A stretch of 64,000 bases of DNA from a virus (taxonomy: Duplodnaviria > Caudoviricetes). A program made the position numbers and the translations under genes. The notes below the pieces were generated by a model that was given only the letters and a program-made list of their open reading frames with translations, was not told the origin of the DNA and made no database searches. Shown one piece after another: positions 41,077 through 64,000 of the stretch (position 1 is the first letter of the stretch; each line of letters starts with the position of its first letter). Where the stretch lies: IMG/VR virus record IMGVR_UViG_2871105481_000001, positions 1 to 64,000 of that record; one strand, written 5' to 3'.

Positions 41077-41867
41077 TATCGTGATTTCATTAGAAGTATA
41101 GAATCAATATCTGCCATAGAAAGTCCATTTTGACTTTTGCTTAAAACATTCCTAGCACTTTTGAATTCTTTCTTAAATGCTTGAGAAATACTTAATGTAT
41201 CCTGTCCTCCTTCTAATAATTTATATTTTGTGTAATAAACCAATGCATCTTCATATTCATCCGGAATATTGATTGCACATTCATCAATATCATTAATTTT
41301 ATTGCTTACATATTCTATGATCACATTTTGCTCTTCAAGATCAGCACTAAATTCAAAGTATTCATCTCTAACTGAAATCGTACTATTAGAATATTTAACT
41401 AAATCATCTAATAAAGATCTTAATGGTTCTGGTACATATTTACCTTTACCACAGCATACTTCACATGATATATCTTTAATTTTATTATCAACAGAATTAC
41501 AACTAATACATTCCTGGTATAAGTCTGTTCCATCGCAATCTGTTAAAATTGATCCGTCACAGTCAATTAGGAAATTGAAAATGGTTTCTGGTAATGTTAA
41601 ATCTTTAGCTAATTCAATAGTTTTACCATCACAATTAATGATATAAGCACGAATAAATCTAAGATAATCTTGTGGTTTATATAATTTACAAGAAGATGGT
41701 ACTGTACCATTCATCCCTACTATACTCCTACCAAATGTCAGATTTAATTTCTTAAGTGCTTCTTTAAAGTACTTTGTCATCATGAATCTAGTCTTAACTC
41801 TAAATAAGCTATCTGGAGTTTGGGATTCTAATTCAAGTTCATCAATTAAATCTTTCAGTGTAGGCAT
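41076..41867 (-). CDS. tail ring / tubular adaptor protein
   Basis: Position; C-terminal 'IPDEYEDALVYY' typical of P22 gp4-like adaptors. Confidence 0.6.
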   Translation of the reverse strand: MPTLKDLIDELELESQTPDSLFRVKTRFMMTKYFKEALKKLNLTFGRSIVGMNGTVPSSCKLYKPQDYLRFIRAYIINCDGKTIELAKDLTLPETIFNFLIDCDGSILTDCDGTDLYQECISCNSVDNKIKDISCEVCCGKGKYVPEPLRSLLDDLVKYSNSTISVRDEYFEFSADLEEQNVIIEYVSNKINDIDECAINIPDEYEDALVYYTKYKLLEGGQDTLSISQAFKKEFKSARNVLSKSQNGLSMADIDSILLMKSR

Positions 41868-42070: not shown

Positions 42071-42115
42071 TGGTTTATTCCTACTCTATAAGCTTTTCGG
42101 ATTCCGCTATATTTG

Positions 42116-42186
42116 CACGCCTGAAAAGATTCGAACTCTTACTAAATGGTTTGGAATCATTTGTGCTACCATTACACTACAGACGC
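42116..42186 (-). tRNA. trnW: tRNA-Trp (CCA)
   Basis: Cloverleaf GCGTCTG-TA-GTGT AATGGT AGCAC-A-AATGA TTCCAAA CCATT-TAGT-AAGAG TTCGAAT CTTTT-CAGGCGT-G; one A-C mismatch in the anticodon stem; CCA not encoded. Confidence 0.85.
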
Positions 42187-58380: not shown

Positions 58381-58747
58381 ATGTTCAAATCAGATTCAAG
58401 CACTAACAGTGCGCAACAAAAAAATGTAGAAATTGATGACGGTTCAATCAGTCATATTTTTGAAGATCCTACACCTATAAAATCAGGATATTCAGATAAC
58501 TACTTGAAAAAAACACGCAACAATAGGCGTAATTAAAGACCTTTTACTAATCACCCGATTAGAAGAACTCCTAAAACAGACAATTGAATTCAACTGCTTT
58601 AACACCCTTTTCTTTATTATTGGTGTTACTCCATTTTCTGAAGAAGCGAATAAAATTGTAGATGTATTCCTGAAATACAAATACGATAAAGTTCAAGACT
58701 GTTTAGCCGAATATGTGTACACTAAAATTAGTGATGCACTAGTATAG
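58381..58747 (+). pseudogene. icd/ash-position ORF interrupted at an A7 run
   Basis: Frame 1 stops at 58536. Deleting one A at 58507-58513 gives a 121-aa ORF ending TAG 58747. Confidence 0.5.
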
Positions 58748-58777
58748 TTATAGTATAACGTTATAAAATTTACAATC

Positions 58778-59545
58778 ATGTTAGAACAATTCAACTATAA
58801 CGGAAATAACGTGTCTTTTCTTGTAGAAAACGACATTGTGATGGTAAACGCAACGCAAATGGCTAAACCGTTCAGTAAACAACCTTATGAATATTTACGC
58901 TTACCTACTACAAATGAGTTAATTAGAGCCATTACGGGAAAATCCCGTATTGCTGAAAATCAAGTAGTTAAGACAATACGCGGAGGATTAAATCCGGGAA
59001 CCTGGTTAAATGAAGATCTTGCGATTGATTTTGCACAATGGTTGTCTGTTGATTTCAAACTTTGGGTATCTGACCGGATCAAAGAATTAATGAAATACGG
59101 ATTTACAGCAGACAATAAAACATTAGACGCTTTAGTTTCAAATCCAGATCTTTTAATTTCATTGGCAACACAACTTAAACGGGAGCGAGAAGAGAAAGAC
59201 GTTTTGAAGCGCGAGAATGAAAGAATGAAACCCCGTGATAAATTCGTGAACATTGTTTTTGATTCCAGTAGTTTACTTACTTTATCACAAGCTGCAAAAG
59301 CATTACAACTACCCTATGGACGTAATAAGATGTGCCAGAAGTTAAGAGAAAAAGGTGTATTTATGAAACGAGGTACAGAGCCTAAACAGATATATGTTAA
59401 TAATGGTTATTTTGTAGTAAAAGAAGCTTCGTTTGTAAACGCAACTAATACCTATTTACGACCCCAGACTTTTGTATCACAAAAAGGATTAGGATTTATT
59501 GCTCGTACATTAGGAGTAATTGAAGTCCCTAAACTATTACAATAA
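58778..59545 (+). CDS. phage antirepressor, KilA-N plus C-terminal ANT/KilAC domain
   Basis: 'MVNATQMAKPF', 'GTWLNEDLAIDFAQWLS', 'KAL..PYGRNK..QKLREKG', 'QTFVSQKG'. Confidence 0.9.
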   Translation: MLEQFNYNGNNVSFLVENDIVMVNATQMAKPFSKQPYEYLRLPTTNELIRAITGKSRIAENQVVKTIRGGLNPGTWLNEDLAIDFAQWLSVDFKLWVSDRIKELMKYGFTADNKTLDALVSNPDLLISLATQLKREREEKDVLKRENERMKPRDKFVNIVFDSSSLLTLSQAAKALQLPYGRNKMCQKLREKGVFMKRGTEPKQIYVNNGYFVVKEASFVNATNTYLRPQTFVSQKGLGFIARTLGVIEVPKLLQ

Positions 59546-59566
59546 GCTTATTACATAACAACTACT

Positions 59567-59597
59567 AAGAGTTTCCAAAACGGAGACTCTTTTTTTT
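59567..59597 (+). terminator. intrinsic terminator
   Basis: AAGAGTTTCC-AAAAC-GGAGACTCTT followed by a T run. Confidence 0.85.
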
Positions 59598-59712
59598 GCT
59601 TTAAAAGTAAATTAAATTACTTTTTATGACAATATACAAACGTAAAATGATAAACTTTTATGATTGATTTTCTGATACTTACATAATTTATATACTTTTT
59701 ACGCATCTTTTA

Positions 59713-59743
59713 TTTGCGTATTATGTAACTTTTTGTAAATTTG
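59713..59743 (+). promoter_or_regulatory. Bacteroidota promoter of the early operon
   Basis: TTTG (59713-59716), 19-nt spacer, TAAATTTG (59736-59743). Confidence 0.75.
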
Positions 59744-59851
59744 TAACAGATAAGAGAAGACGAAACAAACACAACTTTAAATATTAAGATTTGAACCAAC
59801 CTGAGCAAGTTGTTAAAAGGCTTTCTTTAAGATAACTAAATAATAAAAGCT

Positions 59852-60088
59852 ATGAATTATTTCGGTCAAACATTTAATGAAAAAGCGAGTATAGAAATTA
59901 AGGCACAATGGTATGTAGATAACTATGGAACTAATCCAAAATTTAAAGAATCTGTTTCTACTGGTTTAGAAGATATTTCTAAAAGGATTGAGTTAGTAAA
60001 TGAAAATAAAATCTGGTTAAGTAATGAATTAATACAGAGTTTAAATGAAGCTAAAAGAATACATGAAATAATCTTAACAATTATATAA
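59852..60088 (+). CDS. hypothetical early protein
   Basis: ORF track. Confidence 0.6.
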   Translation: MNYFGQTFNEKASIEIKAQWYVDNYGTNPKFKESVSTGLEDISKRIELVNENKIWLSNELIQSLNEAKRIHEIILTII

Positions 60089-60089
60089 A

Positions 60090-60326
60090 ATGAAAACAAC
60101 TACACTAACAGAAGAACAAAAGGCAGATATAGTAACGATTACTTTTTTATCTATTGGAGTAATACTATTAATATCCTTCGTTGCTTTTATACTGCCTAAT
60201 ATAACATTAGATCAACAGGTTGAAGCTTATAAACGCAACATGCAGCAAAAAGAAATAAAAGAAGCTCATGAATTTCATGAAAAAATGATGTTGGAGGAAA
60301 ATAAAAAATACATTTCAAATCATTGA
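60090..60326 (+). CDS. hypothetical single-TM early protein
   Basis: TM 'IVTITFLSIGVILLISFVAFIL'. Confidence 0.65.
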   Translation: MKTTTLTEEQKADIVTITFLSIGVILLISFVAFILPNITLDQQVEAYKRNMQQKEIKEAHEFHEKMMLEENKKYISNH

Positions 60327-60333
60327 TTTATTA

Positions 60334-60403
60334 ACTCGACTAAGCGAGTATAAAAAGGTTTTAAGCTTAGAGCGTTGATAGTTATAAAAACCTATCAGGT
60401 AAC
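60334..60403 (+). ncRNA. pistol self-cleaving ribozyme
   Basis: P1 ACTCG/CGAGT with loop ACTAAG; ATAAAAAG; P2 GTT/AAC; TTAAG; pseudoknot CTTAG; GCG; P3 TTGATAG/CTATCAG; GT cleavage dinucleotide at 60399-60400. Confidence 0.9.
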
Positions 60404-60425
60404 AACAACTAAAAAATATTACAAA

Positions 60426-61085
60426 ATGAAAACAACATTTTCTTTCACAGACAAAAACAAAAACCTTATAACTATTAAAGCAGAAATAACATTTAGGAAT
60501 AGTTATGCTGAATTTACAATTTAAGGTGATAAAGGTAATAGTTGCGGACAAATTGATTTTTCCCCAAAGAATGAACAACAACAAGAGCTTAAAAATATTT
60601 GGGATAAGTACCACCTACAAAAAATTGATGATCAAGAAAAATTTTGGAACAAGTTTTTAAAATTAACAAAAGAAATAGAAGCTTTTGAATTAGAAGAAAA
60701 AGAAAGAAAAGTAACTGAAGAAGATATAGAATTGTTTGAAGATTTCGACGAACCTGAAAAAGCATTAGTAATAGCATTGATGCTTGATTTATCAATTAAC
60801 GAAATTGAAGACATTTCAAATACATATGATAATTGCTGGGAAGTACAAGGTATATCATATTTATTTGGGACTGATGATGAAATGGATGAAGAATGGGATA
60901 CTGATTTAGATAATTATATAGATGATTGCTTAGAAATACCTAAAGACTTAGAAAGATATTTTGACAGGGAGTTGTGGAAATCGGACGCTAGAACAGACGG
61001 CAGACCGCATTCTCTTGGTAGATACGACGGAAGAGAAATAGAGTTTAAATATGAGAGTACATGGTACTATGCATATAGACAATAA
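60426..61085 (+). pseudogene. early gene with in-frame TAA at codon 33
   Basis: ATG 60426 is in frame with track ORF 60732..61085; only TAA 60522-60524 interrupts it (EFTI*GDKGNSCGQI). Confidence 0.7.
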
Positions 61086-61098
61086 TTAATAGTAAACC

Positions 61099-61145
61099 TT
61101 CCTTTGAACGTGTAGGCGTTATTTGGAGCAATACCAACAAAGGAA
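61099..61145 (+). ncRNA. tRNA-elbow-like three-way junction candidate
   Basis: TTCCTTTG/CAAAGGAA closing stem, AACG-TGTAGG-CGTT, TTGG-AGCAATA-CCAA. Confidence 0.55.
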
Positions 61146-61171
61146 CAAACAAAACAACTAAAATTTACAAA

Positions 61172-61630
61172 ATGAGAACTAACAAATACACTTACTTAAA
61201 AGTAATTCAACAAAATTACAGTGGCAAATGGAAGGATATAGAAGAAGTGGAAGCTAATAGTATTTATGTACCTAAATGCGGAGATAGTATTTTTAAAACT
61301 CTTGTTTCTGGTTATAAATTATTGGGAGTAAGCACTAAAACTATTAACAGAAGGATTATAAACGCAAAACCTTCATTAAGACAAAATTTTAAAGACTGTG
61401 ATGATTTTGCAAACTATGTTTTTGACAGTGTTTTAGATTATGGCGAAATCATAACTAATGAATTTAATCAATTAACCGGATTAAACATAAAAGTCGGTTC
61501 AGACATTAAAACAATTGAATCATTGCCATGCCTGGGTATTAATTACATTGAATTCGGATCTTTAAAGTCAATGCTTTATGATTTATATTACTTCCTAATC
61601 AAAGAAAATAAAATAAACACACTTAACTAA
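61172..61630 (+). CDS. hypothetical early protein
   Basis: ORF track. Confidence 0.65.
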   Translation: MRTNKYTYLKVIQQNYSGKWKDIEEVEANSIYVPKCGDSIFKTLVSGYKLLGVSTKTINRRIINAKPSLRQNFKDCDDFANYVFDSVLDYGEIITNEFNQLTGLNIKVGSDIKTIESLPCLGINYIEFGSLKSMLYDLYYFLIKENKINTLN

Positions 61631-61642
61631 AAATCACAAATC

Positions 61643-61834
61643 ATGTTTGAAGAAAAAATTATAGCATGCGCAACGTATGTTACAGGGATTGCATTGCTTT
61701 TTAACCCAGCTCCTGAGCTTAAATATATAGGTGGAATTATTACGGTTACTTTAATGGTAGTAGGTATTCCAGTAGTATATCAACTCGCTAAAGCCTTTGT
61801 TAGTAAACGCAAAAGATTGAAAAATGCAAAATAA
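61643..61834 (+). CDS. small two-TM protein
   Basis: Two hydrophobic segments and a basic tail. Confidence 0.6.
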   Translation: MFEEKIIACATYVTGIALLFNPAPELKYIGGIITVTLMVVGIPVVYQLAKAFVSKRKRLKNAK

Positions 61835-61910
61835 CATTTCACTAATAGCATATTTCAATGGAGACATTGACAAAATGATAAAAATATTAATTCACTTAAA
61901 ATAAAGTATT

Positions 61911-62228
61911 ATGAAATAAAAGATTGACAACGAAAAAATATTTAAAGAATTTAATCCTTTACCTACTTTAAGTCCAAAAGGACATTGGACTATTAAATCC
62001 GGAAAAATAGGTACACCAGTAGCAATGTTACCAATACCGCAAGGAGGTATTAATGGAAAAGAAAGAATAGAACTTTATACAGATTTACTTGTACAAAGCA
62101 AAGTAATAGCAAAAACACTAATAGAAGTAAATGATTTTCTGTATAACTACAAATATAAAAGTATAGAAGATGCTTATAAATTACAAAGTAAGGTTTTAAC
62201 ATTATTAAAAAAGCTAACTACAGAATGA
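61911..62228 (+). pseudogene. early gene with TAA at codon 3 (or restarting at ATG 62025)
   Basis: ATG AAA TAA at 61911, then an open frame in register with track ORF 62025..62228. Confidence 0.5.
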
Positions 62229-62326
62229 AAACTATTTTACTCCTGTCAATTTTTGCTGTCTTAGCGATAATATCAATTTTTATAGTTAAGCCTTACAATT
62301 TTATAATAAGAATGTTAAATAAATAA
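62225..62326 (+). CDS. 33-aa hydrophobic peptide
   Basis: ATGA overlap with the previous stop; MKTILLLSIFAVLAIISIFIVKPYNFIIRMLNK. Confidence 0.45.
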   Translation: MKTILLLSIFAVLAIISIFIVKPYNFIIRMLNK

Positions 62327-62333
62327 TATCAAT

Positions 62334-62483
62334 ATGATCACCTTATTAAAAATATTCAGAAAGAAAATACAGGAAGAAATACAACCCTGTGGAGTAATTC
62401 AAATCGGAAAATATCCGGAAAATTACAATGATCTAGGCACAAAATTTATGTCTCATCAAAGAAACATTCGTGCAAGGGCATAG
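62334..62483 (+). CDS. hypothetical 49-aa protein
   Basis: ATG 62334 to TAG 62483. Confidence 0.4.
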   Translation: MITLLKIFRKKIQEEIQPCGVIQIGKYPENYNDLGTKFMSHQRNIRARA

Positions 62484-62538
62484 AGAAAAAATATAACTAT
62501 TAAAAAAACAAAGCTCCCCGAAGGAAGCTTATTACAAA

Positions 62539-63576
62539 ATGAAAACAACCATTTATGGAAGTCTTCAAAACAACTATAACAAAGATATGAATTATTTAGA
62601 ATTAAAACAAGACACTACCCTTTCTCATAATTCGGAAATGCAATATTTCAATTCATTTTTCCAGGATCTTTTAAAAGGGTTACAGAGTGGTAAATACATT
62701 ACGGACAAGGGTACTAAATATTCTCTTACCACAATAAGACATTATAAAAATGCTTACGACTGGTTTGTTTTTTGGGAAGCTCACATTGGTATTCAATTAC
62801 AAATGAATGAGGTAATATACAATACTGTTGAAATGTTTAAAACGTTTCTTAGCCATTATCACCTAACATTAAATAGTGTATCAGTTATTATCTCTAAAAT
62901 TAAATCTGTCCTAAACTTTGCTTTTAAGTCGGGTAAGCATTTTTGGAATGGAACAGGAATAAAGATTGTAAAGGAAAAAAATCCAAAAACGTATTTAACA
63001 ATTGAAGAATTAAAGCAAATGCGTTCATGTAAATCTTTAACTGCTGCTGAAGAAATGGTTTTAGACAATTTTACAATTCAGTTTTATATTGGTCAAAGGT
63101 ATGAAACAACACAAAGATTCTTAAAGCAACCTTTTGCGTTTACAAGACAACATGGAGAATTTTCATATATAGAAATTGAAGCATATAAAACTGGAACCGT
63201 TTCATATATCCCATTAGGAGAGATAGTTAAGGGTATTATACAGAAATATAATGGTTTAGTGCCTGTTTATTCTAGGACTTACATTAATCGGATAATTAAA
63301 GTGGTTGCGTTTAAAGCAGGATTAATTCAATTAATTGCAACTCGTGAAACGCGTAATCAAAAAGTTGTTAGAGAGTTTATTCCAAAATATTCTCTTATAT
63401 CTACACACACTGCAAGAAGATCCTTAGTATCAAATCTTAAACAATTAAATTTTTCAAATCAATCAATAATGGGAATTACATCTCATGGTACAGAAGTACA
63501 GTTAAATGACTATAACAGGTCACAAGTAGAAAAAATAAAATCAATATTAGGTCACGAATTTTTCCTGAAAATATAA
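62539..63576 (+). CDS. int: tyrosine recombinase / integrase with SAM-like N-terminal domain
   Basis: Catalytic pattern R ('GQRY'), K ('KTG'), HxxR ('THTARR'), H ('TSH'), Y ('NDY'). Confidence 0.9.
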   Translation: MKTTIYGSLQNNYNKDMNYLELKQDTTLSHNSEMQYFNSFFQDLLKGLQSGKYITDKGTKYSLTTIRHYKNAYDWFVFWEAHIGIQLQMNEVIYNTVEMFKTFLSHYHLTLNSVSVIISKIKSVLNFAFKSGKHFWNGTGIKIVKEKNPKTYLTIEELKQMRSCKSLTAAEEMVLDNFTIQFYIGQRYETTQRFLKQPFAFTRQHGEFSYIEIEAYKTGTVSYIPLGEIVKGIIQKYNGLVPVYSRTYINRIIKVVAFKAGLIQLIATRETRNQKVVREFIPKYSLISTHTARRSLVSNLKQLNFSNQSIMGITSHGTEVQLNDYNRSQVEKIKSILGHEFFLKI

Positions 63577-63582
63577 AATCTC

Positions 63583-64000
63583 ATGAAGAATTTAGAAATC
63601 ACTCAAGAAGCAGCAGTAAAAGCATACTCTGAAGCTTCAAAAAATGGAAAACTATTACTAGAAAATCTTTTTGGAAAAAATGTATTTCTTGTAGATATTA
63701 AAGAAAGAATTAAATCTATTGAAGATGCAATTAATGAACTTGGAGAAAATGATGATGAAGTAATTGTATTAAGAGCCTTAGAAGTAGCTGGTATAAGTAA
63801 TCATATTTTATATACACAATGGTTAGTAGTTATTACCAAAGCTCTAAACGAAGGTTGGGAACCAGATTGGGGGAATGGACAATGGGATAAGTGGTTCAAC
63901 TGGTTCAATATGCCATCAAAAAATGGCCGGTTCTCGTTCTACTGCTCCAATTATCAGTACTCGGTTTCGGTTTGCGCTTCCCGCCTTTGCTTTAAATCAA
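63583..64000 (+). CDS. putative DGR target protein 2 (runs off the window)
   Basis: Open from ATG 63583 to the window end: ...ALNEGWEPDW...FSFYCSNYQYSVSVCASRLCFKS. Confidence 0.8.
   Translation, partial: MKNLEITQEAAVKAYSEASKNGKLLLENLFGKNVFLVDIKERIKSIEDAINELGENDDEVIVLRALEVAGISNHILYTQWLVVITKALNEGWEPDWGNGQWDKWFNWFNMPSKNGRFSFYCSNYQYSVSVCASRLCFKS
63841..63998 (+). repeat. 158-bp repeat copy 2 (DGR variable region VR2)
   Basis: 144/158 identical to 49734..49891. Confidence 0.9.

Follow-up and report, generated by a model that had tools for sequence, protein, structure and literature searches.

A canonical pistol ribozyme between two cistrons of an integrated phage, and the interrupted reading frame that follows it

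What does a self-cleaving RNA do when it lies between small, co-oriented reading frames of an integrated phage, and which of the two transcript ends made by its cut would matter? The question is raised by a 71-nt element at 60334-60404 (+) of the window, the whole 64,000-base stretch analyzed here. The window corresponds to positions 1-64000 of an IMG/VR record of 72,248 bases, a provirus by classification with an estimated completeness of 63%. The pistol class, to which the element belongs, counts hundreds of known members, and its biological role is still unproven; Weinberg et al. 2015 is said to be the reference for it. Pistol chemistry and the association of these ribozymes with phage genes have already been published (Harris 2015, PMC4604425), and a pistol from Alistipes (Bacteroidota) is among the constructs in the methods of that study (PMC4604425). 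Self-cleaving ribozymes of bacteria and phages have also been suggested to process polycistronic transcripts into pieces that differ in stability or translatability, a published idea that is unproven (PMC6765202).

The element is a genuine, canonical and ordinary new single-copy instance of a common class. The full reading, in which a canonical pistol on the sense strand between two integrated-phage cistrons would cut the transcript at 60399/60400 and uncouple the two halves of the operon, is very probable. Beyond the earlier note on this DNA, which had been made from the sequence alone, only the broken downstream frame and the quantified spacing of stop, ribozyme and ATG are new.

A full-length pistol on the sense strand

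An Rfam scan of the whole window with 4227 families returned Pistol (RF02679) at 60334-60404 (+), a 71-nt match that covers model positions 1-68 of 68 and scores 65.1 bits (gathering score, 34.5; E 1.3e-9). The earlier note had assigned the sequence to the pistol class and had proposed a covariance-model search as a check; the match is significant and runs the full length of the model, which bears the assignment out. It recurs in a genome search of the record, where it is the sole pistol. No other ribozyme family was found in the window by a permissive Rfam scan (E up to 1), and a core-motif search of both strands found no second or circularly permuted pistol core in the window. The idea of a second or permuted pistol in the window was rejected, as neither a further core motif nor a ribozyme match at E up to 1 was present.

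All the sequence and structure features of the class were found in the element. It opens with P1, a 5-bp hairpin in which ACUCG (60334-60338) pairs with CGAGU (60345-60349) around the 6-nt loop ACUAAG, as seen in both the sequence and the model alignment. Within this loop lies the 5' strand of the pseudoknot, CUAAG (C60340-G60344), which can be read from the sequence to form 5 bp with the 3' strand CUUAG at 60366-60370. The A-rich linker AUAAAAA (60350-60356) matches the model's conserved AUAAA.A and leads into P2, whose strands GGUU (60357-60360) and AACA (60401-60404) are placed by the model alignment; G60358-U60360 pair with A60401-C60403, and G60357 stands opposite A60404. The conserved UUAAG (60361-60365) aligns to the model consensus UUAgG, and its A60364 and G60365 correspond to A32 and G33 of the env25 pistol. 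It is followed, beyond the pseudoknot strand, by AGCG (60371-60374), an exact match to the consensus GAGCGU that contains G60372, the equivalent of the general-base guanine (G40 of env25). P3 is a 7-bp hairpin with a 10-nt loop, formed by UUGAUAG (60375-60381) and CUAUCAG (60392-60398) in both the alignment and the fold; its outer pair is U.G, and an inner U.C mismatch is flagged by Infernal. The predicted scissile G-U (60399-60400) occupies the unpaired linker that joins the 3' strand of P3 to that of P2.

The helix-by-helix mapping in the earlier note proved correct, with every element that it listed present where it had been placed. Its cut site, G60399/U60400, agrees with the model, as the alignment puts these bases on the model's two-base unpaired 'GU' linker, where the cut is predicted, and its naming of G60372 as the general-base equivalent holds, since AGCG matches the consensus. 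In class membership, structure, position and layout the element is a typical pistol; its chemistry and its site of cleavage are presumably those of the family. Two features were counted against the canonical reading: P2 has just three standard pairs, and the sixth pseudoknot pair, which adjoins the catalytic G, is an A.A combination, one that is common in relatives.

It is scarcely credible that the locus resembles a pistol by chance, with no ribozyme fold behind it. The sequence is AT-rich and its energy fold is unremarkable: a nested-only minimum-free-energy prediction (z -1.0) contains P1 and P3, with a competing hairpin at 60358-60373 in place of P2 and the pseudoknot. However, folds of this kind cannot represent or score a pseudoknot. 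An E value of 1.3e-9 over 64 kb and 4227 families argues against chance, as do the presence of all invariant bases and the complementarity of the two pseudoknot strands. The latter is independent support because the covariance model does not score the pseudoknot; by the authors' estimate, the chance of five standard pairs in this fixed register is about 0.007.

Variation and covariation among viral pistols

A conserved-core pattern search of IMG/VR viral contigs returned at least 116 stretches, and the matches listed come to 124 when the window and its duplicate locus (L001) are counted. Eighty-three of these 124 listed matches, the window's included, keep the register and have both a perfect 5-bp pseudoknot and a P1 with 4-5 bp. 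The sample was chosen by a fixed-spacing core pattern and an author-made pairing filter, so the proportions drawn from it are indicative rather than a census. When 17 of the sampled loci were scanned with Rfam, 34 other pistols were confirmed at 40.6-76.5 bits, a range in which the window's 65.1 bits falls near the middle.

Column counts against the 64 unique elements among the matches listed revealed no rare base in the 5' half of the window's pistol. A60339, the base behind the A.A state of the sixth pseudoknot pair, is also A in 20 of the 64 listed elements. The base equivalent to A23 (60356) is invariant in the elements among the matches listed (64/64), the AUAAA itself being fixed by the search pattern. 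At the outer position of P2, a G.A combination such as G60357.A60404 is the commonest state (40/53 among the matches listed).

Covariation was assessed in an alignment of 23 Rfam-confirmed pistols, the window's included, with four helices counted and the pseudoknot among them. Standard pairs form in 96.7% of cells, versus 33-44% when the 3' partner is slid by 1-3 columns. Changes on both sides were found in 16 of 18 pairs, across all four helices, and the P1 pairs and all pseudoknot pairs covary. The scissile G and U are invariant in this alignment, and P3 closes with U.G in every one of the aligned relatives (21/21). Ten of the 23 lack the sixth pseudoknot pair; its absence from the window's pistol is thus shared with about a third or more of relatives. 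Compared with the class as a whole, the window's copy has the same element order, conserved bases, pseudoknot, G-U cut site and 71-nt size, lies likewise near phage genes, and shows no structural difference.

The transcription unit and its interrupted frame

From 58778 onward, every gene of the window lies on the + strand. The first of them (58778-59545) is identified by family matches as a KilA-N/ANT anti-repressor-type gene, and 3' of it a consensus match marks a terminator-like hairpin (59567-59591) plus T-run, ending at 59600, which would set this gene apart from the unit that holds the ribozyme. Next comes a promoter-like site at 59712-59743 (TTTG, 20 nt, TAAATTTG), a match to the Bacteroidetes-type consensus only; it is the only + strand copy of TAnnTTTG between 59600 and 64000. 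Together these signals suggest that transcription of the ribozyme's unit begins near 59750, separately from that of the KilA-N/ANT gene. The name 'early operon' used in the earlier note is a label and not a result; the one signal present is the promoter-like site at 59712-59743 following the terminator-like hairpin.

The presumed unit begins with two small + strand ORFs of 78 codons each and without family matches, at 59852-60088 and 60090-60326, the second with a predicted hydrophobic segment. The ribozyme starts 7 nt past the stop of the second. Behind the predicted cut, an A-rich leader of 26 nt (60400-60425) in which no Shine-Dalgarno motif can be read separates U60400 from the ATG at 60426, the same distance that had been claimed before. 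No intrinsic terminator-like site occurs on the + strand between 59600 and 62500, and the operon gaps at 61086-61171 and 61835-62024 fold no better than shuffled sequences (z -1.45 and -0.56). The remaining + strand genes are further small ORFs, a tyrosine-recombinase-like gene (62539-63573) and an ORF that runs from 63583 onward. Just upstream of the recombinase-like gene there is a GC-rich palindromic hairpin at 62511-62530 (AAGCTTCC TTCG GGGAGCTT, - strand), scored as a terminator for the - strand only. Elsewhere in the window, a DUF805b RNA (RF02914) matches at 42078-42110 (-) with 45.7 bits, above its cut-off of 35.6; 4 nt separate it from a phage tRNA-Trp(CCA) gene (42115-42186, -) on its upstream side, and it precedes an ORF that ends at 41867.

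The host appears to be Bacteroidota-like, judging from a G+C content of 29%, the TAnnTTTG motif and the absence of Shine-Dalgarno sequences from leaders. A blastn search of 58700-63600 against phage records gave one weak 212-bp match, a tblastn search with a 456-aa ORF of the structural region gave none, a 41-nt stretch was matched exactly in none of the species genomes searched, and a protein-pattern scan of species genomes gave three uninformative MAG matches.

The earlier note had treated the ATG at 60426 as the start of the downstream gene. The frame is present on the + strand at 60426-61088 (220 codons to 61085), as its translation and the alignment of its homologues show, but it is interrupted: codon 33 (60522-60524) is an in-frame TAA that the note had missed, at a position where ten aligned homologues have Ser, Thr or Ala. 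The translation beyond this stop has matches to twenty proteins in the databases; the top ones measure 216-228 aa and share 50-64% identity. The TAA could have arisen from a TCA serine codon by a single base change. Genome-wide recoding of TAA was rejected: no suppressor tRNA was found in the window, where the only tRNAs are tRNA-Trp(CCA) and tRNA-Met(CAT), and long ORFs stay uninterrupted under code 11. For the same reasons the TAA is best read as a nonsense mutation or an assembly error; local readthrough at codon 33 is possible. An in-frame TTG at 60732 could still yield the acidic C-terminal 117 residues.

The protein encoded after the stop is acidic (pI 4.25), and searches with the window's own copy returned no Pfam match (E up to 0.1) and no PHROG match. 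Weak matches were obtained among its family: to ArdA (PF07275) in 8 of 11 members, with a best E of 1.2e-4, and to PHROG 2059, 'anti-restriction protein', in 5 of 15. For a structure model of the homologue P0001 (64% identical, pLDDT 89.6), Foldseek ranks ArdA (2W82) first at an E of 0.2, which is below significance, and the comparison of the model with 2W82 by VIA (Z 2.8, rmsd 4.3, 84 residues aligned) is likewise below significance. A sequence-profile search of the PDB with the downstream protein did not return ArdA. The protein may thus be described as weakly ArdA-like, a relation that is unproven: it shares with ArdA its acidity and, through its homologues only, weak family matches, but it differs in a beta-rich N-terminal domain and in a frame broken by the stop.

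Across the viral loci searched, the ribozyme is not tied to this gene. Relatives of the downstream protein are encoded at 64 viral loci, 60 of which were scanned with Rfam in 1.5-kb flanks, and a pistol was found in none of those 60. Conversely, none of the ORFs that flank 83 pistol-like elements among the matches listed fits the downstream protein's profile; these flanking ORFs encode mostly unrelated small proteins (92 of 161 are singletons among the matches listed). A conserved pairing of pistol and ArdA-like gene was therefore rejected. Three of the 60 scanned loci carry a type II hammerhead on the gene's strand, shortly downstream of the ArdA-like relative (L006:2599-3063, L028:2914-2976 and L033:2414-2476).

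The broken frame makes a present-day benefit of the cut in this provirus doubtful, since the gene that would benefit has a stop at codon 33. It also raises the idea that the ribozyme, intact in sequence and perhaps still able to cut, is a leftover in a decaying provirus in which the downstream gene has become a pseudogene. The in-frame TAA at a position where the homologues have Ser, Thr or Ala speaks for this, as does the origin of the window in an incomplete record classed as a provirus. However, no conserved position of the ribozyme deviates, the window's other large ORFs are uninterrupted, and the TAA may have arisen recently or through faulty assembly; in addition, same-strand genes further downstream would still benefit from a cut. 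On this evidence decay is improbable.

Spacing and the proposed action of the cut

The position of the window's pistol can be compared with that of its relatives. Fifty-three of 63 unique sampled elements among the matches listed lie on the strand with the greater ORF length. The element begins between -20 and +15 nt from the upstream stop in 44 of 62 unique cases among the matches listed, the window's value being +7. Where both a cut site and a downstream ATG ORF could be located, the distance from cut to ATG is 15-45 nt in 34 of 52 elements and peaks at 25-26 nt (12/52), all among the matches listed; it is 26 nt in the window. The window's 7 nt and 26 nt are the modal arrangement of the sampled pistols. 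Many of the sampled leaders among the matches listed are, like that of the window's copy, A/T-rich and without a Shine-Dalgarno motif. Within the broader range of starts, pistols among the matches listed usually begin 0-12 nt past the upstream stop.

Self-cleavage of a polycistronic mRNA would be the likeliest action of such an element. Established pistol chemistry (PMC4604425) predicts a cut of this kind, with a 5'-OH left on the downstream piece, and the co-oriented, tightly packed ORFs on either side fit it. The unit would be transcribed, probably from about 59750, through both 78-codon ORFs, and the RNA would fold into P1, the pseudoknot, P2 and P3. The 2'-oxygen of G60399 would then attack the neighboring phosphate and the transcript would be severed between G60399 and U60400. 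The upstream piece, with the ORFs 59852-60088 and 60090-60326, would have at its 3' end a fold made of 66 of the ribozyme's 71 bases and bearing a 2',3'-cyclic phosphate, and the downstream piece would begin with a 5'-OH on U60400, followed by the 26-nt A-rich leader that precedes ATG 60426. The two halves of the operon would thereby be uncoupled in stability and translation. That both halves are co-transcribed as a single mRNA, and that the cut has a physiological effect, we infer.

Which end of the cut would be under selection is a separate matter. One proposal places the effect on the upstream piece, where the folded ribozyme body with its cyclic phosphate would act as a 3' stabilizer or terminator substitute for the two small ORFs. 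The 66 of 71 bases left on that fragment are consistent with such a role, as are the start of most sampled pistols, among the matches listed, no more than some 15 nt from the upstream stop and the lack of an intrinsic terminator-like site on the + strand at 59600-62500. However, the spacing to the next ATG is equally tight and peaked, which argues that the downstream end matters too, and effects on the upstream piece and on the downstream leader are not mutually exclusive. Selection on the upstream piece is possible, if on the unlikely side.

A second proposal, rather doubtful at present, joins the ribozyme and its A-rich leader of about 25-26 nt without a Shine-Dalgarno motif into one portable module. 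Selection would favor that module because it provides the next cistron with a defined 5'-OH leader, unstructured and constant in length, from which phages of Bacteroidota-like hosts could initiate translation independently of a Shine-Dalgarno motif. It would, if true, account for the sharp 25-26-nt peak, to which the window's copy and one in four sampled elements belong. Whichever end proves important, the tight spacing from stop to ribozyme to ATG, with its mode at 25-26 nt, could guide functional tests. The present locus is a clean test case for the effect of cutting on the flanking cistrons because it combines a single copy and a simple operon with a stop 7 nt before the ribozyme and a start 26 nt after the cut.

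To the known class the window's pistol adds one instance. Its layout fits the idea of mRNA processing (PMC6765202) and the known association with phage genes (PMC4604425). As in other ribozyme-punctuated operons of phages and prophages, in which arrays of hammerhead, twister and pistol ribozymes lie between small genes (PMC6765202), it occupies a sense-strand site between cistrons, just past a stop and shortly before a start; it differs in that only one boundary of the window's operon bears a ribozyme. The window has its pistol once; in some viral contigs three to six follow one another. Such Rfam-confirmed arrays, placed between small same-strand ORFs of IMG/VR contigs, hold six pistols at L131:306-4313, four at L158:4604-6659 and three at L089:359-2041.
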